From Ferroglobus placidus DSM 10642 (lineage in GTDB: Archaea; Halobacteriota; Archaeoglobi; Archaeoglobales; Archaeoglobaceae): a stretch of 32,000 nucleotides of DNA. Below are positions 1,523 through 21,571 of this stretch, one piece after another. The position numbers and the translations under genes are program-made. The number at the start of each line of letters is the position of its first letter. Position 1 is the stretch's first letter. The notes below the pieces were generated by a model, which was not told the DNA's origin, ran no database searches, and saw nothing but the letters and a program-made list of their open reading frames with translations. The stretch lies in NCBI RefSeq assembly GCF_000025505.1, contig NC_013849.1:1200001-1232000 (forward strand), given 5' to 3'.

Positions 1523-2102
1523 AATAATAAATAAATGGGAAGAAAATATAAGTTTTCCCATTCACCTGCGGAGTGTTTCTCAATCTCCTCAAGCATTCCC
1601 AAAACGAACACGATGAGGAGGTTTTTAGGAAAATATCCTGCGAGTCATGAAAATGTTCCTCTTTCCGGAAAGTTCAAGAGGACAGTTATTAACGTCCACA
1701 TTAGAAATTTAGAAAAGAGCGCCGAGAGAAAGCTTCTTCACGAGCTCTAATCCTTTCCATTATGACTTAAACTGAAAAGTCTGCCTTCATGTTTTGCGGG
1801 AATAGTTGTCGAAAACTTTTGCGTAAAGCCGCCCGGCTGGTGGTTCTTTTTGTATAAGTTCGTTGAGGGGGAGTCCCCGAGCATCACGGCAAGTTCATCA
1901 AGTTTTTTTCAGTGATGGTTATTCTCTCCGCCTCGTCGATGTCGAGGTAAACTTCAATAACCTCTTTTTCGCTTTAAAAGACTCATCCCACGTACTTCGT
2001 TTCTTTTGACAATGTAAACCATTGATTGTAAGTATCTCTTTCCGCTAAGTTTTACCCATAACGAAACAGAGCACACTCTCCGGGACGCGAAGCAAAAGAG
2101 AG

Positions 2103-2183
2103 CGCCGGGGGTGGGATTCGAACCCACGCGGGCAGAGCCCAGCGGCTTAGCAGGCCGCCGCCTTACCACTCGGCAACCCCGGC
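2103..2183 (-). tRNA. tRNA-Ser (anticodon GCU)
   Basis: I folded it by hand. Acceptor GCCGGGG/CCCCGGC, 3-bp D stem, anticodon stem GCGGC/GCCGC with loop CTGCTAA. There is a 14-nt variable arm, T arm GTGGG-TTCGAAT-CCCAC and discriminator G. CCA is not encoded. Confidence 0.9.
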
Positions 2184-2208
2184 TTAAAGAAATCTTTTCG
2201 GTATCTGG

Positions 2209-2215
2209 TTTTAAA
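2209..2215 (-). promoter_or_regulatory. Candidate TATA box for tRNA-Ser
   Basis: The minus strand reads TTTAAAA about 25 nt upstream of the mature tRNA 5' end, the usual archaeal TATA spacing. Confidence 0.4.
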
Positions 2216-2297
2216 CGTTTTGTTCATTATTGTCATTTGATAACCTGCAACAAAATGAAAAGACAATAAGTAAATACCGCACACATTTTTTCATTCT

Positions 2298-2816
2298 GTG
2301 AACTTTCCCAAGAAAGTAAAAATTGCAAACGGCGAAGAAATTACGCTCAGATTCCCTAAGAAAGACGATTTGGAGAAGTTGATAAGGATGTACACAACGC
2401 TATCCGAAAATTCACTCCGATTTCTCAGACCTTACGAGTTTTCGAAGGAAGAAGTCAAAAAGATGTTCGAAAGAGTCGATTTCGAAAACGTTTACTCTGT
2501 TGTTGCGGAAAACGAAAAGGGGGAAATCGTGGCTGAAAGCAGACTGATAAAGGTGAGCGAAAATTCCGCTGAGCTGGCTGTCATAGTTCACGACAGCTAC
2601 CAAAACAAAAAGCTCGGACAGACCCTTGCGAGGGAAATGATAGAGTTCGCAAAGAGCAGAGGGTTCAAAAGATTAATAGCGTTCATAAATGAGAGAAATC
2701 GCGCTGCTTTACACATCTTCGAAAAGTTAGGGTTTAAAGTTGAAGCCCGCTCTTACCTTGAGCCGAGCATAATGGGGAAAAGTGGGGCTGCTTTAAAGCT
2801 CGTTCTCCAAATTTAA
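2298..2816 (+). CDS. GNAT family N-acetyltransferase
   Basis: 172 aa with a GTG start. The acetyl-CoA binding motif A is QNKKLGQTLAREMIEFAKSRGFKRL, followed by NERNRAALHIFEKLGF. Confidence 0.8.
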   Translation: MNFPKKVKIANGEEITLRFPKKDDLEKLIRMYTTLSENSLRFLRPYEFSKEEVKKMFERVDFENVYSVVAENEKGEIVAESRLIKVSENSAELAVIVHDSYQNKKLGQTLAREMIEFAKSRGFKRLIAFINERNRAALHIFEKLGFKVEARSYLEPSIMGKSGAALKLVLQI

Positions 2817-3121
2817 TCGTACTCCCTCCAAGTTTTCCCGCACTTCGTGCAGCGGAAAAACCTCACCTCGCTTTCGTCCGCTGCTCTCAATTGCCTTAAC
2901 CACCAGTAAGCTTCCCTGTTTCCGCATGCCGGGCAAATGACGTTCGTCGTTGGCAGAGTTTTTACGTTCTCCTCCTCAATTACCGGTATCTCTTCCTTGT
3001 TCCTCTTCGAAACCGTGATGAACTCTTTTTCTCCGGCATCTTTCTCAAAACCGCACTTTCTGCAGACCGCTTTGTCTCCCTGATATATCATTATGCTCTT
3101 ACACTTTGGACAGAATTCCAC
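2813..3121 (-). CDS. tfs: Transcription factor S (TFIIS-like cleavage factor / RpoM family)
   Basis: 102 aa with an N-terminal zinc ribbon (CPKC...CRKC). The C-terminal ribbon is CPACG...LRAADESEVRFFRCTKCGKTW and retains the acidic DE loop. Confidence 0.85.
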   Translation of the reverse strand: MEFCPKCKSIMIYQGDKAVCRKCGFEKDAGEKEFITVSKRNKEEIPVIEEENVKTLPTTNVICPACGNREAYWWLRQLRAADESEVRFFRCTKCGKTWREYD

Positions 3122-3512
3122 GCAGATACACCTCCGCGTCCTTTATCATTTTTTCGTGATCGAATGCTAATTCCGGAAGTTCTTCGAGTTTAAAAACTTT
3201 CACATCCTCAGCGTCACTTCCGGCTTTAAGTTCTCCGCCTATGGGAGTAAGAATGAAGCAAATCGAAACGAAATGTCCTCTCGGATCTCTGTTCGGATCG
3301 GAGTAAACTCCAACGAGTTTCTCAATTCTACACTTCAATCCCGTTTCCTCCTCAGCTTCTCTTATAACAGCATCCTCAACCTTCTCACCGTACTCAACTA
3401 TTCCTCCGGGCAAAGCGTACTTTCCTTTGAAAGGCTCGTTCTTTCTTCTTACGAGAACTATTCCCCCTCTGTAGGGGATTATCGCATCGACGGTAAGCGT
3501 TATGCACTTCAT
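3099..3512 (-). CDS. Nudix hydrolase
   Basis: Nudix box GGIVEYGEKVEDAVIREAEEETGL (GX5EX7REUXEEXGU). Confidence 0.85.
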   Translation of the reverse strand: MKCITLTVDAIIPYRGGIVLVRRKNEPFKGKYALPGGIVEYGEKVEDAVIREAEEETGLKCRIEKLVGVYSDPNRDPRGHFVSICFILTPIGGELKAGSDAEDVKVFKLEELPELAFDHEKMIKDAEVYLRGILSKV

Positions 3513-4147
3513 AGAATCACATCCAATATTGACTTTCTAAAGTTTTTCTCCGCCTGCTTTTTCGCCCACGAAACGTCTCCTACTCGCTCAACCGAATGCG
3601 CATCGCTCCCTATCGAGTAAATCAACCCCTTTCTCCCAGCCTCTTCAATTACGTCGAGAGGGGGAGCTCTGTGATAGCTGTTAATCTCTATCGCCACGCA
3701 ATTTTCCTTTGCGAGGTCGATAATTTCAAGGTCGTATTCGGGAATTCTACCGTCCAAGCTAACCATTTCTGAATGCAAATGCCCGAGAACGTGAATCTCC
3801 TGAGTCTTTATACACTCCCTCAACCTCCTGTAGTACTCCTCCGGAGTCAAGTAGCTGTGGATCGAAGCGATGACCAAATCGAATTCGAATTCCGGCTTTT
3901 CTACCCTTCCGTTTTCGAGAATTCCGCACTCTATTCCGTTAAGAACTTTAACTCCGTACTTCTGCTCAGCCATCTCAATCTCGATCGATCTTTTTTCAGC
4001 TTTCTTCTTCGTGAGTCCGAGGGGGTGTTCGGAAGAGTGGTCCGCTATGCAGATAATCTTCAGCTTCCTTTCCATGGCTTTCCTAACTATTTCGTCAATT
4101 TTCCCCTTCCCATCAGAGTAAGTGCTGTGTATGTGGAAGTCGAACAC
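3509..4147 (-). CDS. PHP-domain metal-dependent phosphoesterase (histidinol-phosphatase-like)
   Basis: N-terminal FDFHIHSTYSDG motif, later ADH, LGHLH and GSDAH histidine clusters. It overlaps the Nudix gene by 4 nt. Confidence 0.75.
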   Translation of the reverse strand: MFDFHIHSTYSDGKGKIDEIVRKAMERKLKIICIADHSSEHPLGLTKKKAEKRSIEIEMAEQKYGVKVLNGIECGILENGRVEKPEFEFDLVIASIHSYLTPEEYYRRLRECIKTQEIHVLGHLHSEMVSLDGRIPEYDLEIIDLAKENCVAIEINSYHRAPPLDVIEEAGRKGLIYSIGSDAHSVERVGDVSWAKKQAEKNFRKSILDVIL

Positions 4148-4186
4148 AACGAAAACTGTATATTCTCTGCATAAAAACGATTTGCC

Positions 4187-4933
4187 ATGCTACAATTCAT
4201 CTCGACACTCCTAATGTTCATCTACGCACTATCAAAAAACAAATTCGTCGGCTTCGTCTCTTGGACGATCTTCGGAGTTTTCTGGCTGCTAAATTTACCT
4301 TACTACATGAGCATCTCCGACTACTTCAATTCCGTGCTGATGGTTGCAGCCTTTTCTCTCTTCACTCTCCTCGGTTTAACGATTCTGAGAACCAACGATG
4401 ACGTTTTTCCGAGACTGACTTTTATCGCAGCTATCTCCTCTCTCATTTACTTCACCTTCGCCGAAACGATGCTCGGAAAAGAGCTAATAGAGATCGTGGC
4501 TATGCAAACATCAATTTTAGCGAGCTTTCTCGGCTACAAATTCTTAGTCGACGGAGATTTCATTTACTACAACGGCAAAATCGTACAGATAATTCTCGCC
4601 TGTACGGGAATCGAAAGCATTTCGCTTTTCGCCGGTATCTCTTTGGGAGCAGAAGGTAGAGCGGTTAACAAGATAAAAGCATTTTTGGTTTCAGTTCCGG
4701 TAATTTACGTGCTCAACCTCCTAAGAAACACGTTTATAGTTCTCGCTTACGGAGATAGCTGGTTTGGAGAGAACAGTTTCTACATAGCCCACCACGTAAT
4801 CTCCAAGTTTCTTGCGACGGTAGCATTGATAATTATCGCGATGCAGGTCTTCAAGTATCTGCCTAAATTTGCCGATGACGTGTTTAAAGCTAAAGATGCG
4901 GTGGTGAGAACTTGGTTAGAAAAGAGGCGTTGA
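4187..4933 (+). CDS. Archaeosortase family protein (exosortase/archaeosortase superfamily, ArtA-like)
   Basis: 248-aa polytopic membrane protein with the family Cys/Arg/His signature: ILACTGIESISL, LNLLRNTFIV and IAHHVISKF. Confidence 0.75.
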   Translation: MLQFISTLLMFIYALSKNKFVGFVSWTIFGVFWLLNLPYYMSISDYFNSVLMVAAFSLFTLLGLTILRTNDDVFPRLTFIAAISSLIYFTFAETMLGKELIEIVAMQTSILASFLGYKFLVDGDFIYYNGKIVQIILACTGIESISLFAGISLGAEGRAVNKIKAFLVSVPVIYVLNLLRNTFIVLAYGDSWFGENSFYIAHHVISKFLATVALIIIAMQVFKYLPKFADDVFKAKDAVVRTWLEKRR

Positions 4934-5484
4934 AAGTTATTTTAATTCTCGCCCTCTTACTTCCCCTCGGAATTTTCGTAAAATTTCTGATACCTCTCCT
5001 CTCAGCTCTAATAGCCTTTACAATTTTCTTCTTCAGAGATCCGGAAAGGAAAATCGGAGATTGGGTTATCTCTCCTGCAGACGGGAGAATCGATTTCGTC
5101 GAAGATAACAGGCTGGAAATTTTCATGGGGCTATTTGACTGCCACGTCCAGAGGTCTCCGGTGAGTGGAATAGTTAAAAGAATAACTTTCGTCCCCGGAA
5201 AAAAGCGACCGGCGTTTATAAGAGGAGGGAACGAAAGAAAGGTGATAGAAATTGAGAGCGAAGAAGGAACTTTCGTAGTCGAGTTAATAGCAGGAATTTT
5301 TGCGAGGAGAATTTTCTGCTGGGTGAAAGAGGGAGAGAAGGTTGAAAAGGGGCAGAGAATAGGAATGATAGCCTTCGGCTCAAGAGTTGCCTTAGAGGTG
5401 CCCGAAAATTACGTTTTCGTTAAAAAGGTAGGGGAAAAAGTTAAGGCTGGAGAGACGGTTGCCGTGAAATATGAAGCTGGCTGA
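4912..5484 (+). CDS. psd: Archaeal-type phosphatidylserine (archaetidylserine) decarboxylase proenzyme
   Basis: N-terminal TM segment, then FRDPER, SPADG and HVQRSPVSG. The self-cleavage-type motif is IAFGSRV. The start is ambiguous (TTG 4912 or 4930) and overlaps the archaeosortase stop. Confidence 0.8.
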   Translation: MVRKEALKVILILALLLPLGIFVKFLIPLLSALIAFTIFFFRDPERKIGDWVISPADGRIDFVEDNRLEIFMGLFDCHVQRSPVSGIVKRITFVPGKKRPAFIRGGNERKVIEIESEEGTFVVELIAGIFARRIFCWVKEGEKVEKGQRIGMIAFGSRVALEVPENYVFVKKVGEKVKAGETVAVKYEAG

Positions 5485-6025
5485 TGCATTTTCAATACTG
5501 AACGCAACCTTCGGATTTCTTGCCATATATTACCGCGATCCCTCTTTCATATTCCTCGCCGCTTTCGCCGACGGTTTAGACGGATATCTGGCAAGAAAAT
5601 ACGGTTCTGGAGATCTCGGAAAGAACCTCGACACTCTGGCAGATTTTATCTCATTCGGAGTGGCTCCAGCTTACTTCCTCGGAATTTTTGCCTTTCCTTA
5701 CCTTTTAGCCTCAATTTACCGCCTCGCAAGATTTCTTAACGTAAATAAAGAAGATTTCGTCGGATTTCCCGTGACAGCTTCGGCAATGATAGTCGTTCCG
5801 CTACTTTTCTTTTCTAAAAATTTGTCGCTTTTTGCGGCAATAATTCTCTCGTTTTTTATGGTTAGCGAGATAGAGTACAAGAAAGTCAAGGATGCGAAGC
5901 TTTTGAGTGTTGCCGCAATCCTAATTCTTATCGCTTTCATCGATTCAAGACTTTCTGTTGGAATTCTCACCCTTTCAATCCTCTATCTCCTCTCTCCCCT
6001 CGCTAAAAACTTTTATAAACATTAG
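5471..6025 (+). CDS. pssA: CDP-alcohol phosphatidyltransferase (archaetidylserine synthase-like)
   Basis: DGLDGYLARKYGSGDLGKNLDTLADFISFG matches DGx2ARx8Gx3Dx3D. It is a multi-TM protein and overlaps psd by 14 nt. Confidence 0.8.
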   Translation: MKLADAFSILNATFGFLAIYYRDPSFIFLAAFADGLDGYLARKYGSGDLGKNLDTLADFISFGVAPAYFLGIFAFPYLLASIYRLARFLNVNKEDFVGFPVTASAMIVVPLLFFSKNLSLFAAIILSFFMVSEIEYKKVKDAKLLSVAAILILIAFIDSRLSVGILTLSILYLLSPLAKNFYKH

Positions 6026-9188: not shown

Positions 9189-9638
9189 ATGATGGAGGAG
9201 ATAAGAAAACTTTACGAGAAGTTTGGCGGAGAGGTTAAGGAGTTTGAGAAGTTCGAGGGAGAAGTTGACGTCGGTTACAAAATCGAGTTCGAGAAGAAAA
9301 TAGAGGACGTGGACGTTCACTTCTTCGGTCTCGCTTCCGGAGATTTGAATCCGATTCACTTCGACGAAGAGGTTGCTTCGAAGACGAAGTTTAAGGGAAG
9401 AGTCGTCCACGGAATGCTCACCACAAGCTTAGTTTCGGCAGCCGTAGCAAGAATGCCGGGGATAGTAGTTCTGCTCGAAGCCTGCTTCAAATATACGAAG
9501 CCGGTGAGGATCGGCGACACCGTTAAAGTTGTTGGAGAAGTTGTTGAAAAAGAGAAGAATAGATACAAACTCGATGTAAAATGCTTCGTAGGTGAAAACG
9601 TCGTGGCTGAGGGTTACGCAAAAGTTTTGCTCTGGTAA
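9189..9638 (+). CDS. MaoC-like (R)-specific enoyl-CoA hydratase (PhaJ-type hot-dog fold)
   Basis: FFGLASGDLNPIHFDEEVASKTKFKGRVVHGMLTTSL aligns with the PhaJ/MaoC active-site segment (D..H..HG). 149 aa. Confidence 0.85.
   Translation: MMEEIRKLYEKFGGEVKEFEKFEGEVDVGYKIEFEKKIEDVDVHFFGLASGDLNPIHFDEEVASKTKFKGRVVHGMLTTSLVSAAVARMPGIVVLLEACFKYTKPVRIGDTVKVVGEVVEKEKNRYKLDVKCFVGENVVAEGYAKVLLW
9276..9637 (+). repeat. Direct repeat copy 1 (3' 362 nt of the maoC gene)
   Basis: By manual base-by-base comparison it is identical to 17951-18312, at an offset of 8675 bp. Confidence 0.9.
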
Positions 9639-9680
9639 ATTATACCGAAAAATATTTATACCAAAACCGTTTAATGCCAA

Positions 9681-9962
9681 TTGATGGTAATGGTTCCGGA
9701 GTACTTCAAGGAGTTCCAGGAGTTCTGGAACGAGATGGTGAAAAACCAGAGGGAGCTCGTAAAGAACTTACTTTCCTCTTTCGAGTTCCTCTCGAAATTC
9801 AACATTCTAAGGAAGGATGTAGCCGTGTTCAGAGCTAAAGTCCAGAGTGGGGGAAGAATTTCGATTCCCGAGGCTGATAGGCAAGCTTTGGGGATAAAGG
9901 AGGGAGATTTGGTAAAGGTAATCGTAATAAAGGAGGAAGGAGGTGATTGGAATGGAATTTAA
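9681..9962 (+). CDS. AbrB/SpoVT-domain DNA-binding protein (PhaR-like regulator candidate)
   Basis: C-terminal GRISIPEADRQALGIKEGDLVKVIVI is an AbrB-type motif. It sits directly upstream of, and overlaps, a phasin-like gene, as in haloarchaeal phaRP. The start may be the ATG at 9684 or 9690. Confidence 0.6.
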   Translation: MMVMVPEYFKEFQEFWNEMVKNQRELVKNLLSSFEFLSKFNILRKDVAVFRAKVQSGGRISIPEADRQALGIKEGDLVKVIVIKEEGGDWNGI

Positions 9963-10263
9963 GGACTTTTTGGAGAACGTGAAGGCTTTCTACAAGATGG
10001 GTTTCGTCGTTAGCAAAACGAGCGTCGATCTCGTGAAGGTTGCGATGGACAGCTACGTAGGTTTGTACGAAGTATATCTAAGACAGATCGTTCCGAGCGA
10101 AATATACGAGAACGTCAAGAAGGCCCTTCAGCTCTACACGGAATCTCAGGCGAAGGTTTTCGAGAACTTCAAGAAGCTTCTCGACCAGCTCGAAAAGCAG
10201 CAGGACGAGATATTTGCGAGAATGGCTGAGCTCGGGAAAGCTGCGACTGGCGAGAAGAAGTAA
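9952..10263 (+). CDS. Small helical phasin-like protein (PhaP candidate)
   Basis: 103 aa, predicted all-helical and amphipathic. GGAGGTGA lies 5 nt upstream of the ATG. The call rests on context (PhaR-like upstream, PhaEC nearby), with no strong motif. Confidence 0.45.
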   Translation: MEFKDFLENVKAFYKMGFVVSKTSVDLVKVAMDSYVGLYEVYLRQIVPSEIYENVKKALQLYTESQAKVFENFKKLLDQLEKQQDEIFARMAELGKAATGEKK

Positions 10264-10274
10264 CTCCAATTTTT

Positions 10275-10844
10275 TTATTTTTTAACGGCTATTAAGTCGA
10301 AGAAAAGAACATTCTTTTCGAAATGAATTACTTCAAAAAAATCTCCAACAAACTTCGCTATCGAGTCCGGTTTTGGAAAGTTCTCAATCGCTCTTTTAAT
10401 TTTCTCGGCGTAGGCTTTACTTATATTCTCCTCAAGACATCTGAGAGTCACGTTTTTCACGATTTCGGGCATTTCCGAATTTAAATCCCTGATTGCCAGA
10501 GCCCCTCCTTCTTTTAAACATCCTCGAGCTTCAAGAATGGTAGGAAGACCGACGTCGTGGAGGGAATAGCTGAAAGTGATTAGGTCGAACGCTTCGCTTT
10601 TAAAAGGCAGCTTTCTCGCATCTCCCAGAACGGCGTTGGACATTTTGCAGAAATCCTTGTTAACGTCTATTCCGTAAATTTCGGCTTTATCGAAAACTCT
10701 TGATAGTTCATCGATAAGAATTCCGCTTCCGCATTCAACGTCCAAAATCTTCTTCGCATCCGCGAGCTTAGCTATTTTCAAAACGAACGCTCTGTAAAGA
10801 AGTCTGAATTTTTCAGCCCACTCGGAATATCTGCAACTTTCCAC
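10275..10844 (-). CDS. Class I SAM-dependent methyltransferase
   Basis: Motif I is ILDVECGSGILIDEL, followed by post-I IYGIDVN and motif II-like FDLITFSYSLHD. Confidence 0.8.
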   Translation of the reverse strand: MESCRYSEWAEKFRLLYRAFVLKIAKLADAKKILDVECGSGILIDELSRVFDKAEIYGIDVNKDFCKMSNAVLGDARKLPFKSEAFDLITFSYSLHDVGLPTILEARGCLKEGGALAIRDLNSEMPEIVKNVTLRCLEENISKAYAEKIKRAIENFPKPDSIAKFVGDFFEVIHFEKNVLFFDLIAVKK

Positions 10845-10879
10845 AAAATTTACATAGTCTTTTTTAAGATATTACAGTT

Positions 10880-11389
10880 ATGGTAGAAGAATTCTGGAGA
10901 ACTTATAAAAAACTCTTCGAGCTGTACGCAAAGCTTTCCGATCCGCGAACGTACTTCGGCGAGCTAACGGAAGAAGAAATTAACGAATCGCTATCCAAAA
11001 TCTTCAACGGCTTCGCAAAGTTGGGCAACCTGAACCTCAACTACTTAATCGAGCTCTACGGAAATGTTTTGAAAGGAAACCCCGAAGAGGTTTTGAAAAC
11101 TAATTTGGATTACCTCGAAAAATTAGAGGACACGATAGCGGAAATTGTCGACAACCCCCTCTATTCGGCTTACATAAACTTCGTGGACAGAGTCTTCCTG
11201 AACTACCTGATAACGCTTCAGAATATCAACAACGCCATCTTCCACAGCATCGGAATTCCGACGAGAAGGGACATCGTGGCTTTATCTGAAGCTTACGTCG
11301 ATCTTAAAGGGGATTTGAAAAAGGAGTTCAGAGCTCTCAAAAAGGAGATCGAGGAGTTGAAAGCGGCAATAGGAGGTGAGAAAAAATGA
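10880..11389 (+). CDS. PHA synthase subunit PhaE-like (short form)
   Basis: 169 aa, overlapping the downstream phaC by 4 nt. The C-terminal IGIPTRRDIVALSEAYVDLKGDLKKEFRALKKEIEELK resembles the PhaE C-terminal P-T-R-x-D plus coiled-coil segment. Confidence 0.55.
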   Translation: MVEEFWRTYKKLFELYAKLSDPRTYFGELTEEEINESLSKIFNGFAKLGNLNLNYLIELYGNVLKGNPEEVLKTNLDYLEKLEDTIAEIVDNPLYSAYINFVDRVFLNYLITLQNINNAIFHSIGIPTRRDIVALSEAYVDLKGDLKKEFRALKKEIEELKAAIGGEKK

Positions 11390-12498
11390 TTTACTACGCT
11401 ATTAGTGAATACTTGAGAAACGTTAGGAGGTTTGCTTCTCTCTACGAGTGGTTCATCGAAAACAGAAATTTCATTCTGCCGGATGAGGACACTCCCTATC
11501 TTATCCCGGACGTCGAAGTGGGAGTTACGCCGAAGGTGGAAATATACAGCGATAACGGAGTTAAGCTTTACAGATACATGCCGAGGACGGAAAAACAGTA
11601 CGAAACTCCTCTTCTCATAGTTTACGCCCTCATCAACAAGCCCTACATTTTAGACCTTCATCCGGAGAGGAGCGTCGTGAGGAAATTCCTCGACGCGGGT
11701 TTCGACGTTTACCTGATAAAGTGGGGGGACGCCACTATAGCTGATCAGTTCGGACTTTCTGGGTACATTGACATCTTCATGTACGACTTCATAGAATACC
11801 TCAAAGATTACGCTGGAGTCGAAAAGATCTCCATCCTCGGCTACTGCATGGGAGGGGGACTTTCGGCAATCTACACCTCGCTATACCCGGAAAACGTTAA
11901 AAACTTGCTGCTGCTTGCCGCGACGCTTTACTTCGATAAAGAAGTAGGAGGACTCGTCACGCTATCCGACAAGAGGTTTTTCGATCCGGAAGAAATTGCG
12001 AAGGTTTACGCGTACATTCCAGCTTGGTTCATGGCTGAGAGGTTCAAACTGCTCAGACCTCTCGAAAACTACTTCACAAAGTACGTTTCCATGTTCCTAA
12101 ACGCCGAAAACAAGGACTTTCTCGATCTGTTCTTCAGAATGGAGAAGTGGATTCACGACGGAGTAAATGTTGCCCCTTACGTTTACGTCGAATACGTAAG
12201 AGAGCTTTATCAGAACAACGCTTTGTGCGAGGGGAAGCTCTTCATAAACGGGAAAAAGGTCGATCCGAAGAGAATAGACATGCCGGTGGCGGCGATAGTA
12301 GGGAAGAGGGATCATTTGGCTCCTCCGAAAAACACCCTCGGATTTCTGGATTACATATCGAGTAAAGATAAAGCGGTATTCGAAGCTGATGCTGGGCACG
12401 TCGGTCTCGTCGTTTCTGGAAAAGCGATGAAAATGTGGGATGAAGTAGTTAAATGGCTTTCGAAGAGAAGCGGTAAAAAAGTTGAGAGAAAAATTTAA
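11386..12498 (+). CDS. phaC: Class III poly(R)-hydroxyalkanoate synthase catalytic subunit PhaC (copy 1)
   Basis: PLLIVYALINKPYILDL, lipase-box-like ILGYCMGGG (catalytic Cys), RMEKWIHD, GKRDHLAPP (Asp) and AGHVGLVVSGKA (His). It is collinear with my recollection of Allochromatium class III PhaC. Confidence 0.85.
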   Translation: MIYYAISEYLRNVRRFASLYEWFIENRNFILPDEDTPYLIPDVEVGVTPKVEIYSDNGVKLYRYMPRTEKQYETPLLIVYALINKPYILDLHPERSVVRKFLDAGFDVYLIKWGDATIADQFGLSGYIDIFMYDFIEYLKDYAGVEKISILGYCMGGGLSAIYTSLYPENVKNLLLLAATLYFDKEVGGLVTLSDKRFFDPEEIAKVYAYIPAWFMAERFKLLRPLENYFTKYVSMFLNAENKDFLDLFFRMEKWIHDGVNVAPYVYVEYVRELYQNNALCEGKLFINGKKVDPKRIDMPVAAIVGKRDHLAPPKNTLGFLDYISSKDKAVFEADAGHVGLVVSGKAMKMWDEVVKWLSKRSGKKVERKI

Positions 12499-12503
12499 TT
12501 TTT

Positions 12504-13490
12504 TTATTTCGACCTCTCGACTATCCACTTAACAGCTTCCGGCCACAGCTTTTTGTGAGCACTTCTGCTTACAGTCAAGCCTATGTGCCCTTTGTCGACC
12601 GTCAGCATCTTTTTGTCCTTCGAGGGGATTTTTTCGAAGAAGGGTATAACGGCTTCTGGAGGAGTTATGTGATCTTTTTCGGCAACTAAAGCCAGCACGG
12701 GCATTGTAATTTTGCTGAAATCAACTTTAACTCCGTTTACATCGTACTCTCCTTTCATGAGTTCGTTTCTGTGATACCATCTCGTGATGTACTCTTCGAA
12801 AACGTCTCCGGGAACTGAGGGAGAATCGAATATCCAGAACTCCATGTAGAAGAAGTCCTTAACGAACTTTTCATCGCTTAGATTATCAAGCAGAGACTGA
12901 TACTTTCCGACAGCCAATCTTACCGGATCAACGAGCAAGAAAGCCAAATTCAAAAAGTCTCCGGTGGCGTTGAATAAAGCTCTCGAAACTTTTTTCGGGT
13001 CTATGTTCTTAGCCCAGATTGCTAAAGTGTTCGACGTGTCGAAGTTTATTGGGGGAGTTTGAATAACGAGATTTCTCACCTTTTCCGGATGAAGGGAAGC
13101 GTAAATCACCGCCAAAGTCGTTCCGAGGCAGTAGCCGTGCAGAGTTACGTTTTCAACCCCCCTCTCTTTCCTTACAAAATCGACGCAGAAGTCGAGAAAG
13201 TCGATGTAGTCGGATATTTTTAAGTGTCTGTCAGCGAAGCTCGGATATCCCCAGTCTATCATCCAAACGTCCAATCCGGCTTCTATCAAAAGTCTTACAA
13301 CGCTGACATCCTTATGTAAATCGAGAATGTACGGACGATTTATGTAAGCGTAGCTTATAATTACCGGCGTTTTCAGCTTGGGCTTCGACTTGAAGTGGAG
13401 CAGCTTGAAAACCCAGTCTTCGTGTGCAACTTCGTACTCGCAGTAACCGGGTTTAGTCCCCTTTATCTTCTCCACCAACATCTCCAACAC
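12504..13490 (-). CDS. phaC: Class III PHA synthase PhaC paralog (copy 2)
   Basis: PVIISYAYINRPYILDL, LHGYCLGTT, YMEFWIFDSP, AEKDHITPP and KGHIGLTVS. It is convergent with copy 1, with 5 bp between the stop codons. Confidence 0.85.
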   Translation of the reverse strand: MLEMLVEKIKGTKPGYCEYEVAHEDWVFKLLHFKSKPKLKTPVIISYAYINRPYILDLHKDVSVVRLLIEAGLDVWMIDWGYPSFADRHLKISDYIDFLDFCVDFVRKERGVENVTLHGYCLGTTLAVIYASLHPEKVRNLVIQTPPINFDTSNTLAIWAKNIDPKKVSRALFNATGDFLNLAFLLVDPVRLAVGKYQSLLDNLSDEKFVKDFFYMEFWIFDSPSVPGDVFEEYITRWYHRNELMKGEYDVNGVKVDFSKITMPVLALVAEKDHITPPEAVIPFFEKIPSKDKKMLTVDKGHIGLTVSRSAHKKLWPEAVKWIVERSK

Positions 13491-14397
13491 CCCCCATTCT
13501 TTCTATTCTCTTCTCCAACTCTCTTATCTTCCTCCTCAGCTCGTAAATCCTTTTAAAAGCTTCATCCATTAGTGAGATGGTAGCAAACGGGTTTAAAGGG
13601 TTGCTCATGGCCAATTCTTCGTAGAAAGATCTCGCGTTGTATATGTAGTCCATCAAACTGTCGAGCATCGCTTTTTGCGTTTTCAGGTAATCCTCACTTC
13701 TCAAAAGCTCGTCGAAAATCCTAGCTTCTTCCTCGAAAAACGCGTTGGCGAATTCGTTGTAGCTATCGAATTTTTTGCTGTTAGCCTTGTCTATAAAAGA
13801 TTGGGCACCCTTAACGTACGAGCTCTTCACGAGCTCCCTGAACTTCCTGAAAGCCGAGCTAAATTCTCTAAGGTTTTCCAAAGCGCTTTCAAACCTCAAA
13901 AATACGCTTTTAGGCAGCAGGAAGGGAAACTCCGTTGACAAATCTATTCTCATGAATTCGCTTCTGAACCTACTCATCCTCTCCCTGTAAATTTCCACGA
14001 ATCTTTCGAGAACGTCCTTTTCAGCCTTCGGAAGCACGTATCCAGCGTACAAGCTTGCCGTCAATCTTACGTGGTCGTAGAGAGATCTAAGAAATTCGGT
14101 GTAGGCGTTTAAAAGCTCCGCCTGAGCTTCAAACAAGCTGATGAATTCTACCCTCGGGAACATGAACTCAAGCTGCCTTCCTCCGTAAACGGCAACCTCG
14201 AGAGGTCTGAAGAAGAACCTGAAGAACTCTTCAAAAATTCTTTCAAACTCCTCTCCGTAACTCAGCTTAATTCCGGCTTCGTGTCTTTTATACAAATCCT
14301 CGAGAATCCTTCTTATTCTGATGTTTCTCAAAAGGAGTTCGAAGGACTCCTTCGGAGCAGTTCTAAATAGCTCCACAAGCTCTTCTTCGCCGATCAT
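13453..14397 (-). CDS. PhaE-like partner subunit (long form) of PhaC copy 2
   Basis: About 314 aa, helical, overlapping the phaC2 start. The C-terminal NPFATISLMDEAFKRIYELRRKIRELEKRIE is PhaE-like. I prefer the ATG at 14397, which has GAGGTGG upstream, over the GTG at 14415. Confidence 0.5.
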   Translation of the reverse strand: MIGEEELVELFRTAPKESFELLLRNIRIRRILEDLYKRHEAGIKLSYGEEFERIFEEFFRFFFRPLEVAVYGGRQLEFMFPRVEFISLFEAQAELLNAYTEFLRSLYDHVRLTASLYAGYVLPKAEKDVLERFVEIYRERMSRFRSEFMRIDLSTEFPFLLPKSVFLRFESALENLREFSSAFRKFRELVKSSYVKGAQSFIDKANSKKFDSYNEFANAFFEEEARIFDELLRSEDYLKTQKAMLDSLMDYIYNARSFYEELAMSNPLNPFATISLMDEAFKRIYELRRKIRELEKRIERMGGVGDVGGEDKGD

Positions 14398-17678: not shown

Positions 17679-17730
17679 AACGAAATTATAACTTATTCAG
17701 CTCAGATAAATTCGTTTCGATGATAGGTTT

Positions 17731-17779
17731 AAAATCTATCACGATTTGTTACCCACACACCCCTTTGTTTCCTGTGGAA
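17731..17779 (-). repeat. 49-bp element, copy A
   Basis: The minus strand reads ttccacaggaaacaaaggggtgtgtgggtaacaaatcgtgatagatttt. It matches 27968-28016 on the plus strand at 47/49 positions. It lies 52 nt upstream of the ferredoxin/AOR operon start. Confidence 0.85.
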
Positions 17780-17937
17780 GCACACCAGCTTTGCCATGCT
17801 TTAAACCAATCACAAAAAAAAGACGTTAGATGTTTGATTTTTAACTTTCCAGTGAAGAAATTAACAATTTTAGCTTTATCTAACTTTAAATTCGTTTTTA
17901 CTTTCCACCAGAAATTCAATCCGAAAACAGTTATCTA

Positions 17938-18313
17938 CGTTGACATCAGCTACAAAATCGAGTTCGAGAAGAAAATAGAGGACGTGGACGTTCACTTCTT
18001 CGGTCTCGCTTCCGGAGATTTGAATCCGATTCACTTCGACGAAGAGGTTGCTTCGAAGACGAAGTTTAAGGGAAGAGTCGTCCACGGAATGCTCACCACA
18101 AGCTTAGTTTCGGCAGCCGTAGCAAGAATGCCGGGGATAGTAGTTCTGCTCGAAGCCTGCTTCAAATATACGAAGCCGGTGAGGATCGGCGACACCGTTA
18201 AAGTTGTTGGAGAAGTTGTTGAAAAAGAGAAGAATAGATACAAACTCGATGTAAAATGCTTCGTAGGTGAAAACGTCGTGGCTGAGGGTTACGCAAAAGT
18301 TTTGCTCTGGTAG
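17938..18313 (+). pseudogene. 5'-truncated second copy of the MaoC/PhaJ gene
   Basis: Codons for YKIEF...KVLLW are nucleotide-identical to 9276-9637. The native N-terminal ~29 codons and start are missing. The ORF-track 197-aa ORF (17720-18313) extends only through AT-rich non-homologous sequence that contains the 49-bp repeat. Function via an alternative start cannot be excluded. Confidence 0.6.
17951..18312 (+). repeat. Direct repeat copy 2
   Basis: Identical to 9276-9637. Identity stops at the third base of the stop codon (TAA vs TAG). Confidence 0.9.
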
Positions 18314-18622: not shown

Positions 18623-20878
18623 TTGAAGTTTGTGAAAGAAGACGCTCTCTCCCCGGTCGTCGGATTCATATTAATCATCCAGATCCTGATAATTTTTCTC
18701 ACTCTCGTGCAGACAGTTTTCATACCCGACCATCTCAAAAAAATTGAGGCTGATAATGTTGAAAAGCTAAGAGGAGAGGTCGAAAAGTTTTCAGCCCTTG
18801 CATCGTCCGGAGAAAGGGCTTACATGCTCGTAACTCTTCCAGACTATCCAGAATACCTTTTTCTTTTAACTCCCGAGCCAGCTGGCTCTTCAATTTACGC
18901 CGAGGAATTCAACATAACTCTAAAGTACACCGAGGTTCTTCCGAACGGAACTAAAGTGGACGTTTTGAAAAATTTGAAGAGTAGCAGAATTTACGTTAGG
19001 GTGGAGAACTACTACTATCCCGACGTCACTTTCATCTTCGAAAACGGAGCGATTTTTCAAAAGCAGGACAAGGCGATAGTTGCTGTTGGAGATCAAGCTC
19101 TAATTAACTCTGAAATTAAACTAACGATTCTAAAAGGCAACTTATCTTTAGCCTACAACACACCGAAAGAGATAGCTTTTCAACTGGTTTCCACGGGAGG
19201 ATTCGTTTACGGAGAGAACATTTCGATAACCTTCGAAAGCGTGAACCCAGATTTCTGGAGAAAATACGGAAGCGTGAGCGGAAATATCGTGACGATTAAC
19301 GCTTCGAGCGGAGTGATTAGGATAAACGTTTACGCTTTCGAAGGAGAAAGCGTTAGCAGAAAACCCTACAGACTCCTCAAACTCAATCCCTTCGACGAAT
19401 ATACAGTTGCGAAGGGAGACGTAAAGGAGTTCGGCGTAATTCTTCTGGACAGATTTAACAACCCGGTTGTTGGAGAGACCGTCAATGTTAGCGTTACCGG
19501 AGGAATTGGGACTGTAGACGGTTTACCATCGATAAGCAAGGTAACTGATTCTGCCGGAAGAGTTTACGTGAGTTTCAAAGCTACGAGCTCTGGAGAAGGC
19601 ACTGTTACGTTTGAAGTAGGAAATCTGAGCGCATCTTACTCCATAAAAGTCGTCGCTCCGCAAGTTTCTGGAGCTTCTCTGATCAACGTGGAGTGGTTGA
19701 ACAAAGCGAACCTCGAAAGTCCCTGGGATGCTTATTTGGAGGGAAGAAGAGTTTTAAGCGTAAAAGTTTACGATCAGGACTTACAGCCAATTCCAGACAT
19801 CGATGTAAAATTCGTTGTGACGAACTCTTCTGTCGTAGAATTAAATGCAACTGTTGCGAGAACGAATTCGAGCGGTATTGCAAGTGTAGAGGCTTATCCT
19901 TTAGCCAACGGAACCACCAAGGTTTACGCATTTGCTGGAGACGCTGGAGACGTTCTGAATCTAACAATCATAAACGTAACGAGACCTCCCTGGGTTTACC
20001 CCGGCTGGAAGTACAGAGTCCCAATTTACGTCGAGGAGCTTTCAGGAAACGACCTCATCGATTACCAAATTCTCGTTACGCTCGACGCAAGCTTCAACTG
20101 GAGTCATGCCAAATCTGATGGTTCAGATATTAGGTTTGCTGACAAGAATGGAAATCCAATCCCGTACTGGATTGAAAGCTGGAATTATGGTTCATCCGCA
20201 AAAATCTGGGTGAAGCTGAATATAACTGCTAACGAGAATAAAACAATTTACATGTATTATGGAAATGCAAGTGCCACGAGTGAGAGTGACGGTGATAACG
20301 TTTTTGACTTCTTCGACGATTTTACCACTACAAATTTGAACACCTCTAAATGGACAGTTGTTGACCAAATTCCTAGTATCCAACACTCAATACTCATACT
20401 TACTGGCGGTGACAGTATTGATGCTATTAAAACTCTTAAAAGCTTTAGTCCGCCCATTGCTATTCACTACTATCTAGCTCCATCAGAAACAAGTGGTGAC
20501 TGGGATACTGGAATAGGATTCGGCAAATCTCGAAACAATATGTTAAGATTTACTGATGATACTATAAGTTCTTGGAGAAATTATTTAACAATTCATTACA
20601 AGGGTTGGTGGTCAGACACTATTGAAATACAAACTCCAAGATCTGACTATACAACATTTCACGAGTATCAAGTAATAGTTACAAATAGTGGATCGATATT
20701 TAAGGATCTGACTGATGAAAGGGGGAATCCTTCCCAGTACTCTCTGAACAATGGAAACATTTGGCTCGTTTCAGATAATGATAATTCGGGAAATCAGGGA
20801 TTGTTTGACTGGATCTTTGTTAGAAAATACGTAAATCCAGAACCAAAAGTAACAATCGGTCAAGAAGAGAAATATTAG
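18623..20878 (+). CDS. Large secreted/surface protein with a type IV pilin-like (class III) signal peptide, Ig-like repeats and a DUF2341 + LamG/ConA-like C-terminus
   Basis: N-terminus MKFVKEDALSPVVGFILIIQILIIFLTLV resembles the archaeal Pilin_N signature (xAVSPVIGVILMV). The middle has Big-like segments (VNVSVTGGIGTVDG...VTDSAGRVYVSFKATSSGEGTVTFEV). DUF2341-like: YRVPIYV...DGSDIRFADKNGNPIPYWIESW...AKIWVKLN...IYMYYGN. I count about 18 N-X-S/T sequons. The start is TTG 18623 or GTG 18632. Confidence 0.75.
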   Translation: MKFVKEDALSPVVGFILIIQILIIFLTLVQTVFIPDHLKKIEADNVEKLRGEVEKFSALASSGERAYMLVTLPDYPEYLFLLTPEPAGSSIYAEEFNITLKYTEVLPNGTKVDVLKNLKSSRIYVRVENYYYPDVTFIFENGAIFQKQDKAIVAVGDQALINSEIKLTILKGNLSLAYNTPKEIAFQLVSTGGFVYGENISITFESVNPDFWRKYGSVSGNIVTINASSGVIRINVYAFEGESVSRKPYRLLKLNPFDEYTVAKGDVKEFGVILLDRFNNPVVGETVNVSVTGGIGTVDGLPSISKVTDSAGRVYVSFKATSSGEGTVTFEVGNLSASYSIKVVAPQVSGASLINVEWLNKANLESPWDAYLEGRRVLSVKVYDQDLQPIPDIDVKFVVTNSSVVELNATVARTNSSGIASVEAYPLANGTTKVYAFAGDAGDVLNLTIINVTRPPWVYPGWKYRVPIYVEELSGNDLIDYQILVTLDASFNWSHAKSDGSDIRFADKNGNPIPYWIESWNYGSSAKIWVKLNITANENKTIYMYYGNASATSESDGDNVFDFFDDFTTTNLNTSKWTVVDQIPSIQHSILILTGGDSIDAIKTLKSFSPPIAIHYYLAPSETSGDWDTGIGFGKSRNNMLRFTDDTISSWRNYLTIHYKGWWSDTIEIQTPRSDYTTFHEYQVIVTNSGSIFKDLTDERGNPSQYSLNNGNIWLVSDNDNSGNQGLFDWIFVRKYVNPEPKVTIGQEEKY

Positions 20879-20886
20879 GTGAGAAC

Positions 20887-21243
20887 GTGGAATTTCTAAA
20901 AAAGAATGCGAAGAAGTTTCTGGAAAAAGCTGAGGAAAGCTTTGAAAAGGGAGAATACAATTTCGTAATGTTTTTCGTTGAACAGTTCTTTCAGTTGATT
21001 TTGAAGTTTCTTATTGCTAAAAAGTTTGGTGAATTTCCGAAAACGCACAATTTCAAGATTCTTTTCGAACTAACGGAGGATGAAACCCTAATGAAATTTT
21101 ACCGAGAAAATCTTGATCTGCTGAGGGAGATAGAGTTGTCGTACGTAGCTTCTCGATGTTTCGATGTCGAGTACTCTAAAAACGTAGCCGAAAGGAGTTT
21201 AAACCTTGCAAAAACGTTTTTAAGGGTGATAAAAGTTGATTAA
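20887..21243 (+). CDS. HEPN domain protein (toxin-type component of a HEPN/MNT pair)
   Basis: 118 aa, helical. GEFPKTHNFKILF and YVASRCFDVEY correspond to the conserved HEPN (PF05168-type) segments. GTG start with AGGTGA upstream. Confidence 0.7.
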   Translation: MEFLKKNAKKFLEKAEESFEKGEYNFVMFFVEQFFQLILKFLIAKKFGEFPKTHNFKILFELTEDETLMKFYRENLDLLREIELSYVASRCFDVEYSKNVAERSLNLAKTFLRVIKVD

Positions 21244-21571
21244 AAAGTACTTCGAAGTGCTTAAAAAAAATAGAGAGCTTTTCGAGAAAGCAGATGAAAT
21301 TGCGAGAGAGGTGAAGGAGAGGGCGAAAAAGTTGTTTGATGATTGCGAAGTATACATAGTTGGAAGTTATGCGAAAAAGGAGTTCACGTTGTCTTCCGAT
21401 CTCGACATCCTAATCGTTTCGAGCAAAATTCCCGAAAAGTTCAGCTTCGAATGGTATTCCGAAATTGTAAAGTCCCTTACCGACGACAACCGAATAAATA
21501 TTCATCTCGTTAGCAGGAAAAAGTTCGACAACTTAAAAAGTCTTTACCGACCGAGAATTCCGGTAGATTAA
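21236..21571 (+). CDS. Minimal nucleotidyltransferase (MNT), partner of the HEPN protein
   Basis: VYIVGSYAKKEFTLSSDLDILIVS is the GS...(D/S)DxD pol-beta NTase motif. It overlaps the HEPN gene by 8 nt. Confidence 0.8.
   Translation: MIKKYFEVLKKNRELFEKADEIAREVKERAKKLFDDCEVYIVGSYAKKEFTLSSDLDILIVSSKIPEKFSFEWYSEIVKSLTDDNRINIHLVSRKKFDNLKSLYRPRIPVD

Follow-up and report, generated by a model that had tools for sequence, protein, structure and literature searches.

The analyzed window is a stretch of 32,000 nucleotides (nt) from Ferroglobus placidus DSM 10642 (assembly GCF_000025505.1, contig NC_013849.1, positions 1,200,001 to 1,232,000), and all coordinates below refer to positions within it. Positions 9189–14397 of this window carry eight genes whose content and arrangement resemble those of the haloarchaeal polyhydroxyalkanoate (PHA) clusters. 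We consider it likely that this locus is a PHA granule gene cluster of F. placidus and that it comprises two heteromeric synthase modules of different ancestry. The original prediction, made from the DNA alone, had described it as a PHA locus with two PhaE-PhaC-type gene pairs in a haloarchaeal layout within a thermophile-like archaeon, and homology, motifs, and gene order bear this description out. All of the open reading frames (ORFs) it had listed, eight in total, were found in place (lengths in amino acids, aa):

9189–9638, + strand, MaoC/PhaJ-like protein, predicted (R)-specific enoyl-CoA hydratase, 149 aa
9681–9962, + strand, PhaR, predicted AbrB-type regulator, 93 aa from TTG, with ATG codons at 9684 and 9690
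9943–10263, + strand, small all-helical protein encoded where haloarchaea have phaP (phasin), 106 aa, likely start at ATG 9952
10275–10844, − strand, class I S-adenosylmethionine (SAM)-dependent methyltransferase
10880–11389, + strand, short E-like subunit, 169 aa
11386–12498, + strand, PhaC1, putative catalytic subunit of a class III-type PHA synthase, 370 aa
12504–13481, − strand, PhaC2, putative catalytic subunit of a class III-type PHA synthase, 325 aa from ATG, with the ORF extending to GTG 13490
13453–14397, − strand, long PhaE subunit, 314 aa from ATG 14397, with the ORF extending to GTG 14415

A gene for a second subunit lies directly upstream of each phaC in a co-translated layout, and this pairing is kept in all related loci. 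The stop codon of the short E gene and the ATG of phaC1 overlap in the sequence ATGA, as had been seen before, while the end of the long E gene overlaps the start of phaC2 by 29 nt; the short E-phaC1 pair and, likewise, the long E-phaC2 pair are translationally coupled. The start of the long E gene at ATG 14397 agrees with the starts of its orthologues. The AbrB gene and the small helical gene overlap by 20 nt, or by 11 nt if the latter begins at ATG 9952, the start used by its orthologues. The two synthase pairs are convergent, and the stop codons of phaC1 and phaC2 are separated by the predicted 5 bp (positions 12499–12503 exactly). The methyltransferase gene is transcribed divergently from the short E gene, and in the window their start codons are only 35 bp apart.

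The thermophile-like archaeal context read from the DNA was correct, since the source is a hyperthermophilic archaeon, whose growth optimum is 85 °C. PhaC1 corresponds to WP_012965912.1 of F. placidus, being identical over the stretch printed in the supplement of a recent preprint, and PhaC2 to the RefSeq protein WP_012965913.1, which begins with MLVEKIKG. Both accessions were included in the thermophile genome screen of Schroyen et al. (bioRxiv 10.1101/2025.05.06.652502). For these archaea, that preprint is bioinformatic only; it found the full set of 12 conserved PhaC residues in both F. placidus proteins and noted that phaR, phaP, and possibly phaE are located next to them and that the genes resemble those of Haloferax mediterranei. 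The division into a core and an accessory module, the orphan family of the short E subunit, and the linkage to a methyltransferase described below go beyond the published text considered here.

Family, motifs, and ancestry of the two PhaC proteins

By sequence, both PhaC proteins are catalytic subunits of class III-type PHA synthases with predicted polymerase activity. They matched the NCBIfam class III PhaC model TIGR01836 with E-values of 1.8e-92 (PhaC1) and 2.3e-94 (PhaC2), and these matches surpassed those to any non-PHA family by over 40 orders of magnitude. The first ~28 model positions were unmatched. The catalytic triad consists of Cys154 (codon 11845–11847), Asp309, and His338 in PhaC1 and of Cys118 (codon 13128–13130), Asp270, and His299 in PhaC2. 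All motifs previously given as the context of the triad were found, namely GYCMGG, RDHLAPP, and GHVG in PhaC1 and GYCLGT, KDHITPP, and GHIG in PhaC2. The Cys, Asp, and His columns were invariant in 58 aligned PhaCs, among them the enzyme of Cupriavidus necator (5HZ2). Both proteins contain a lipase-like box of the G-x-C-x-G type with a Cys nucleophile, which makes them synthase-like, unlike hydrolases and depolymerases with their nucleophilic Ser. PhaC1 matched the catalytic domain of C. necator PhaC (5HZ2) with an E-value of 2.6e-27, with the motifs GFCVGG, EDH, and SGH in register. Identity to the characterized PhaC of H. mediterranei over ~330 residues was 42% for PhaC1 and 41% for PhaC2.

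The class III PhaC motif is R-M-E-x-W-I-x-D-x-x-D (PMC7137286). In PhaC1 it reads RMEKWIHDGVN, the sole change being the replacement of the last Asp by Asn, and in PhaC2 it reads YMEFWIFDSPS, with Arg replaced by Tyr and the last Asp by Ser.

A PhaC phylogeny had been proposed as a check of the original prediction. In our tree, built by neighbor-joining only and rooted on class I, the two proteins fell into different clades. The PhaC1 clade had a bootstrap value of 100. The PhaC2 clade (bootstrap 94) joined PhaCs of ~339–386 aa from Bathyarchaeota, Dehalococcoidales, and unnamed metagenomes with a bootstrap value of 100. The phaC genes of Bathyarchaeota and Thermoplasmata are each preceded by a gene with the PF09712 domain of PhaE. 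Orthologues were 76%–84% identical for PhaC1 and 59%–82% for PhaC2.

The two pairs lie side by side in convergent orientation, 5 bp apart, and share the same coupled layout of E followed by C, as would be expected if they had arisen by a recent local duplication and inversion after which one E subunit diverged fast. Such an origin is extremely unlikely. PhaC1 and PhaC2 are only 39% identical, less than either is to haloarchaeal PhaC (41%–46%), and they belong to separate well-supported clades, each of which includes sequences from outside Archaeoglobales; the low identity and the separate clades indicate that no recent duplication took place. Moreover, the two E families could not be aligned in a consistent register (6% and 52% probability in hhalign comparisons), and in other genomes the two modules are arranged otherwise. 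A recent tandem duplication of the pairs is thus effectively refuted by the PhaC identity, the separate clades, and the unrelated E subunits.

The E subunits and the other genes of the cluster

The original prediction had both second-subunit genes as PhaE-like. For the long E subunit, this was supported by the Pfam matches of its family. The window sequence matched PF09712 with 23.9 bits (E = 3e-5; gathering score 25.7) over the C-terminal 120 residues, and 18 of 19 orthologues matched the same family at E ≤ 0.01 (best E = 8.4e-12). With TIGR01834, the long E subunit scored 20.8 bits against a cut-off of 154.95, while the validated PhaE of H. mediterranei itself scored just 29.1. The Geoglobus ahangari orthologue was matched by TIGR01834 with an E-value of 1.8e-12 and also clearly by PF09712. 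Judging from these profiles, the long E family is PhaE, the window sequence alone being borderline. One helix of the long E subunit carries the motif NPFATxSxxDEA.

For the short E subunit, the same claim is supported by profile-profile comparison and not by Pfam, NCBIfam, or HMMER. Profile searches found no PF09712 or TIGR01834 match and no other Pfam or NCBIfam family in this protein, and only one of six members of its family gave a weak PF09712 match (E = 0.039). A word-indexed search of 5.8 billion proteins assigned 36 clusters to the short E family, none of them with a Pfam domain, and all named clusters were from Archaeoglobales/Archaeoglobaceae or G. ahangari. When an alignment of seven haloarchaeal PhaE sequences from annotated plasmids, one of them pHM300 of H. 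mediterranei, was compared by hhalign, the short E subunit matched it with 91% probability (E = 1e-6, 129 columns), and the long E family with 35%. BLASTP of the short E subunit with Haloferax PhaE yielded an E-value of 4e-4. Residues 131–145 of the short E subunit, D-x-x-AL-x-EAYVDLKGD, were invariant in 31 sequences except for three positions. Its AlphaFold2 model is all-helical, with a mean predicted local distance difference test (pLDDT) score of 86; a Foldseek search of this model against the PDB returned nothing at E ≤ 0.001, the best matches being long helices like those of ESCRT-III/Vipp1 at E = 0.3 or worse. Sequence searches of the PDB with the profiles of both E subunits found no solved relative. 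We regard the short E subunit as a highly diverged relative of the short PhaE of haloarchaea, one that is invisible to standard annotation. It is PhaE-like by position, and membership in the PhaE family is remote at best.

The hhalign comparison of the short with the long E subunit is not counted as evidence of homology: the probability was 6% when 6 sequences were used and 52% when 31 were used, in a register that did not pair the C-terminal motifs.

The AbrB-domain protein and the small helical protein that overlaps it had been compared with the haloarchaeal phaR-phaP pair. This comparison stood for the first gene, for the overlap, and for the gene order, and it did not extend to sequence homology of the small protein to PhaP. 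The AbrB protein scored 31.2 bits with TIGR01439, above the cut-off of 28.3, and was 43% identical (E = 2e-20) to the AbrB protein encoded upstream of phaP-phaE-phaC in Haloferax; the counterpart on pHM300 of H. mediterranei is annotated as an AbrB/MazE/SpoVT protein and also overlaps phaP. On this homology, it is a true homologue of haloarchaeal PhaR, with predicted binding to DNA and granules. The phaP-position protein was found beside phaR or the long E gene in 16 related loci, with 50%–71% identity. An hhalign comparison of 12 Archaeoglobales sequences with 5 haloarchaeal PhaP sequences gave a probability of 1%, phasin families were absent from the Pfam matches of these 12 family members, and one BLASTP comparison with PhaP gave an E-value of 0.003. 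Since homology to PhaP or phasins was not detectable, the label phaP refers to position alone; from its position and helical character, the 106-aa protein may act as a phasin.

The first gene of the cluster probably encodes a PhaJ/MaoC hydratase, as its domain, motif, and homology suggest, with a predicted (R)-stereospecificity. It matched PF01575 with an E-value of 5.6e-26 (91 bits versus a cut-off of 27) and contains the hydratase Asp/His motif GDLNPIH. In the PDB, it matched the (R)-enoyl-CoA hydratase of Pseudomonas aeruginosa (5CPG, E = 3.3e-23) and PhaJ of Aeromonas caviae (1IQ6, E = 1.1e-10), the closest match being Archaeoglobus fulgidus AF1124 (2B3M, E = 2.7e-63). The crystal structures of AF1124 (2B3M and 3K67) were deposited as a "hypothetical protein / putative dehydratase"; given this close homology, a structural template for the in-cluster PhaJ-like enzyme already exists. 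In H. mediterranei, the MaoC/PhaJ of the cluster is dispensable for synthesis and acts in PHA mobilization rather than in monomer supply (PMC7137286). Therefore, of the predicted function of supplying (R)-3-hydroxyacyl-CoA from enoyl-CoA, the PhaJ-like hydratase stands, and the direction of supply is not established.

A second hydratase of the MaoC family is encoded 3.3 kb past the cluster, after genes for a G3P dehydrogenase, an aldehyde:ferredoxin oxidoreductase, and a ferredoxin:

17720–18313, + strand, second MaoC-family hydratase, 197 aa, PF01575 E = 1.9e-25

In tblastn comparisons, this protein was a better match (43%) than the in-cluster MaoC to the MaoC proteins encoded in the pha clusters of H. 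mediterranei and H. larsenii, and it is possibly related to the F. placidus cluster. A phaZ gene was not found in the rest of the 32-kb window.

Distribution of the modules in Archaeoglobales

A scan of one genome per species, supplemented with contig look-ups, yielded 29 Archaeoglobales-type loci, including the one in the window (the others are given below by their numbers in our set). The long E gene was located directly upstream of phaC2 in all 29, so this pair represents the core module. Within ~8 kb of it, the phaP-position gene was found in 16 loci, maoC in 14 (52%–78% identity), and phaR in 10. The short E-phaC1 pair was present in only six loci (the window, L002, L003, L004, L013, and L023), each time beside the core pair. 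All eight genes recurred in L002, L003, and L013, and seven were visible in L004, where the contig ends. Gene order and orientation differed among the loci with both modules, while gene content was constant, and the genes flanking the F. placidus cluster (radical-SAM, flavodoxin-like, G3P dehydrogenase, and aldehyde:ferredoxin oxidoreductase) did not recur beside the cluster in the other loci. Constant content combined with shuffled order and unrelated flanks points to a functional module.

The methyltransferase matched Methyltransf_11 (E = 2.6e-12), and no NCBIfam model scored above its cut-off. Wherever a locus with both modules has a visible flank, its gene was found in divergent orientation beside the short E gene (five of five loci: the window, L002, L003, L004, and L013), compared to just 1 of the 23 single-module loci (L022). 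The SAM methyltransferase thus travels with the short E-PhaC1 module. We know of no role for a methyltransferase in PHA synthesis.

No PhaC1 was found in the visible sequence around the loci with the nearest relatives of PhaC2 (L001 and L045, 81%–82% identity), which indicates gain or loss of the accessory module within a short evolutionary time. In sequence databases, ~24 clusters of the PhaC1 type and ~80 of the PhaC2 type were found. To account for two synthase pairs with very different E subunits, the original prediction had offered two alternatives, different substrate or granule specificities or one ancestral set plus one acquired set. The second fits better, because long E-PhaC2 is universal, short E-PhaC1 is patchy, and the two PhaCs fall into different clades.

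The cluster of G. ahangari, another member of Archaeoglobaceae, illustrates the core module with its usual companions. Its proteins are similar to those of F. placidus (78% identity for MaoC, 60% for PhaR, 71% for the phaP-position protein, 43% for the long PhaE, and 69% for PhaC2), but the five genes, maoC-phaR-phaP-phaE-phaC, are co-directional, with a PhaE of 311 aa and a PhaC of 330 aa, and the short E subunit, PhaC1, and the methyltransferase are missing.

Several related loci had features of their own. On a contig of one metagenome-assembled genome (MAG; L024, positions 1672–3722), an insertion of ~1.1 kb, partly N-masked, interrupts the phaC2 orthologue. It contains genes for a fragment resembling a serine recombinase and for a TnpB-like zinc-ribbon protein and looks like an element of the IS607/IS605 type. 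Archaeoglobales-type PHA clusters were also found on contigs labeled Desulfobacterales (L017, L018, L019, and L024), Hadarchaeales (L020), Nezhaarchaeota (P0008/P0153), Marinimicrobia (P0159), and Leptospiraceae (P0199). These clusters encode a PhaC2 with 61%–71% identity and the same long E subunit, phaP-position protein, and MaoC; their occurrence in unrelated bins is due to mis-binning or to lateral transfer. In two close relatives, metabolic genes adjoin the cluster. Those in L045 (positions 9354–13072) encode a 4-hydroxybutyryl-CoA dehydratase-like protein (HpaB_N/HpaB), a crotonase, and a CoA-transferase, and the one in A. neptunius (L044, positions 3617–5569) encodes a fused 3-hydroxyacyl-CoA dehydrogenase/enoyl-CoA hydratase. 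These enzymes are plausible sources of crotonyl-CoA or 3-hydroxyacyl-CoA and fit the metabolic link proposed below.

The remainder of the window, on the + strand throughout, contains an exosortase/archaeosortase-family membrane protein (248 aa) immediately followed by phosphatidylserine decarboxylase and CDP-alcohol phosphatidyltransferase (4187–6025), and a protein of 751 aa in which Big_1 and DUF2341 domains are present (18623–20878), located upstream of overlapping adjacent genes for a HEPN protein (118 aa) and a minimal nucleotidyltransferase (MNT, 111 aa) that form a typical HEPN-MNT toxin-antitoxin-like pair (20887–21571). At 24366–27826, genes for an ATPase of the T2SSE type (512 aa) and a membrane protein of the T2SSF type (641 aa) hint at a locus for the assembly of an archaeal type IV pilus or an archaellum-like structure. 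The 234-aa ORF at 912–1616 had no Pfam match at E ≤ 0.001.

Relation to known PHA systems and possible functions

The haloarchaeal pha cluster (H. mediterranei pHM300 and others; PMC7137286) has the same order maoC-phaR-phaP-phaE-phaC, the same overlap of phaR with the following small gene, and the same coupling of the E gene to phaC. The PhaR proteins are homologous, the lipase box and triad of PhaC are alike, and the short E subunit, at 169 aa, is close in size to the haloarchaeal PhaE of 182–184 aa, to which its profile is matched. On the contrary, haloarchaeal PhaCs are 453–492 aa long, with a C-terminal extension of ~100 residues or more, compared to 370 and 325 aa in F. placidus, and the PhaC of H. 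mediterranei passes the TIGR01836 cut-off, below which both F. placidus PhaCs fall. The phaP-position protein of F. placidus is unrelated in sequence, a methyltransferase gene separates phaP from the E gene, and a second complete module, long E-PhaC2, is present. The host is a strictly anaerobic hyperthermophile rather than an aerobic halophile.

Bacterial class III systems, such as those of Allochromatium vinosum and Synechocystis, on which TIGR01836, TIGR01834, and PF09712 are based, were compared through these profile models only. They share the E gene directly upstream of phaC and a PhaC of ~325–370 aa that has no C-terminal extension. In size, the long E subunit (314 aa) corresponds to bacterial PhaE, and its PF09712 match is C-terminal. 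They differ in that both types of F. placidus subunits score below the curated cut-offs, only about the C-terminal third of the long E subunit is matched, and the regulator is a PhaR of the AbrB type and not of the bacterial type. The class IV PhaR-PhaC synthase of Bacillus likewise has a small helical partner (~20 kDa) beside a PhaC of ~40 kDa, but the F. placidus PhaCs score best with class III, and the faint matches of the short E subunit to TIGR02132 (phaR_Bmeg, E = 0.056) and TIGR01837 (E = 0.095) were not significant. More than one synthase gene, some of them cryptic or horizontally acquired, is known in H. mediterranei (phaC1–3) and in Halomonas and Yangia (two each; PMC7137286). The extra genes of these organisms are lone, scattered phaCs, whereas in F. 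placidus each PhaC is accompanied by its own, unrelated-looking E subunit and the two modules abut.

A scheme of PHA metabolism in F. placidus can be drawn by analogy with the haloarchaeal system and with characterized enzymes of classes I and III. The core module would consist of long phaE and phaC2, often with maoC, phaR, and the phaP-position gene, and the accessory module, in a minority of Archaeoglobales loci, of the haloarchaeal-like short E gene, phaC1, and the divergent SAM methyltransferase. Each PhaC would be an enzyme of the alpha/beta-hydrolase fold that depends on its E partner. The His residue could activate the Cys of the lipase box, which would be acylated by (R)-3-hydroxyacyl-CoA, and the Asp could activate the 3-hydroxyl group of the incoming monomer, enabling extension of the chain. 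The growing polyester would form a granule coated by the small helical protein, while the AbrB-type PhaR would bind to the granule and, when polymer is absent, auto-repress phaR-phaP. MaoC could interconvert enoyl-CoA and (R)-3-hydroxyacyl-CoA, serving supply, mobilization, or both. It would thereby tie the polymer to beta-oxidation and to the crotonyl-CoA formed in anaerobic degradation of aromatic compounds, which serve F. placidus as electron donors.

Several observations weigh against the interpretation of the locus as a PHA gene cluster with two synthase modules. The TIGR01836 scores of PhaC1 (310.1 bits) and PhaC2 (316.3 bits) are below the curated cut-off of 365.3, an annotation threshold rather than a biochemical criterion, while PhaCs of H. 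mediterranei (418.1), Thermoplasmata (446.5), and Bathyarchaeota (383.3) pass it; the PhaC of G. ahangari, with 340.1 bits, is also below. Neither PhaC has the long C-terminal extension of the haloarchaeal type. To our knowledge, bacterial class III PhaCs lack such an extension as well; in haloarchaeal PhaC, it is required for full activity (PMC7137286). In the PhaC2 clade of Archaeoglobales, the Arg of the class III motif is replaced by Tyr, Phe, His, or Ser and the final Asp is missing, although this Arg is kept in the Bathyarchaeota and Dehalococcoidales relatives, and the sixth residue of the lipase box is Thr, Ala, or Ser, compared to Gly in the haloarchaeal G-x-C-x-G-G. Similar deviations occur in a PhaC2 paralogue of H. 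mediterranei without PhaC function (PMC7137286). The grouping of PhaC1 with haloarchaeal and Thermoplasmata PhaCs in the neighbor-joining tree was weak (bootstrap 22%). HMMER detected no link of the short E subunit to PhaE among 1.84 billion representatives; its nine matches, all with E ≤ 5e-21, apparently were all members of its own family. The small helical protein was rejected as a phasin by sequence, on the hhalign and Pfam results given above, and neither phaA nor phaB was found in the 32-kb window. The literature searched reports no PHA in any member of Archaeoglobales and yielded no relevant paper other than the preprint of Schroyen et al., and the F. placidus genome paper makes no mention of PHA.

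Some of these points would be accounted for if the PhaC-like proteins were alpha/beta-fold hydrolases, thioesterases, or acyltransferases with CoA esters from the degradation of fatty acids and aromatic compounds as substrates and no polyester were formed at 85 °C. Besides the low class III scores and the lack of reported polymer, RefSeq names both proteins "alpha/beta fold hydrolase," presumably because they score under the TIGR01836 cut-off, and this name would then be the safer one. In addition, extreme thermophiles are regarded as essentially lacking PHA storage, the one bacterial claim, for Thermus thermophilus, having just been refuted. We consider this explanation very unlikely. The Cys of the G-x-C-x-G box and the synthase-type Asp and His are invariant with those of characterized synthases, PHA synthase is the best family by a margin of more than 40 orders of magnitude, and the neighboring genes for a PF09712 PhaE, a PhaR homologue, and a PhaJ-like hydratase follow the haloarchaeal order.

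The deviant class III motif and the sixth lipase-box residue of the PhaC2 clade could also mean that PhaC1 is the real synthase and that PhaC2 has drifted. Conversely, PhaC2 with the long E subunit could be the real synthase and PhaC1 with the short E subunit a dispensable cargo, since the latter pair is missing from most loci, including those of the close relatives L001 and L045. In either form, only one module would be a working PHA synthase, and the other a silent, conditional, or degenerate paralogue, as in H. mediterranei, where the three extra phaCs are untranscribed during accumulation of poly(3-hydroxybutyrate-co-3-hydroxyvalerate) (PHBV) and one has no function (PMC7137286). That this holds for F. 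placidus appears unlikely, because the ORFs, the triad, and the coupled E subunit are intact in both modules across lineages in which PhaC1 and PhaC2 have diverged to 76%–84% and 59%–82% identity, the conserved block in 31 short E sequences argues for purifying selection on both modules, and the sole visibly disrupted copy is the PhaC2 with an insertion element in one MAG.

Two synthase modules of different ancestry within one PHA granule gene cluster therefore remain our preferred interpretation. A more far-reaching reading, which we offer tentatively and regard as rather doubtful, is that F. placidus makes PHA at ~85 °C with two non-redundant synthases, one being the ancestral long PhaE/PhaC2 and the other an Archaeoglobales-specific short E/PhaC1 with a dedicated methyltransferase. 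Under such a division of labor, the second module could have a different monomer range, operate under different conditions, or be controlled in its assembly by methylation.

The Archaeoglobaceae clusters are the sole credible genetic candidates for PHA synthesis in extreme thermophiles. If the more far-reaching reading is true, the two enzymes of F. placidus would be the first hyperthermophilic PHA synthases, and the methyltransferase-linked variant would be one for which no precedent was found. The present analysis adds a map for testing, consisting of a universal core, a patchy accessory module, a short E subunit missed by annotation, and a phasin-position protein without known relatives. 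If active, the Archaeoglobaceae clusters would provide thermostable PHA synthases for high-temperature production of bioplastics. Their activity would also mean that polyester granules are manageable at 85 °C and that, in iron- and nitrate-respiring archaea, carbon storage is tied to the anaerobic oxidation of fatty acids and aromatic compounds.

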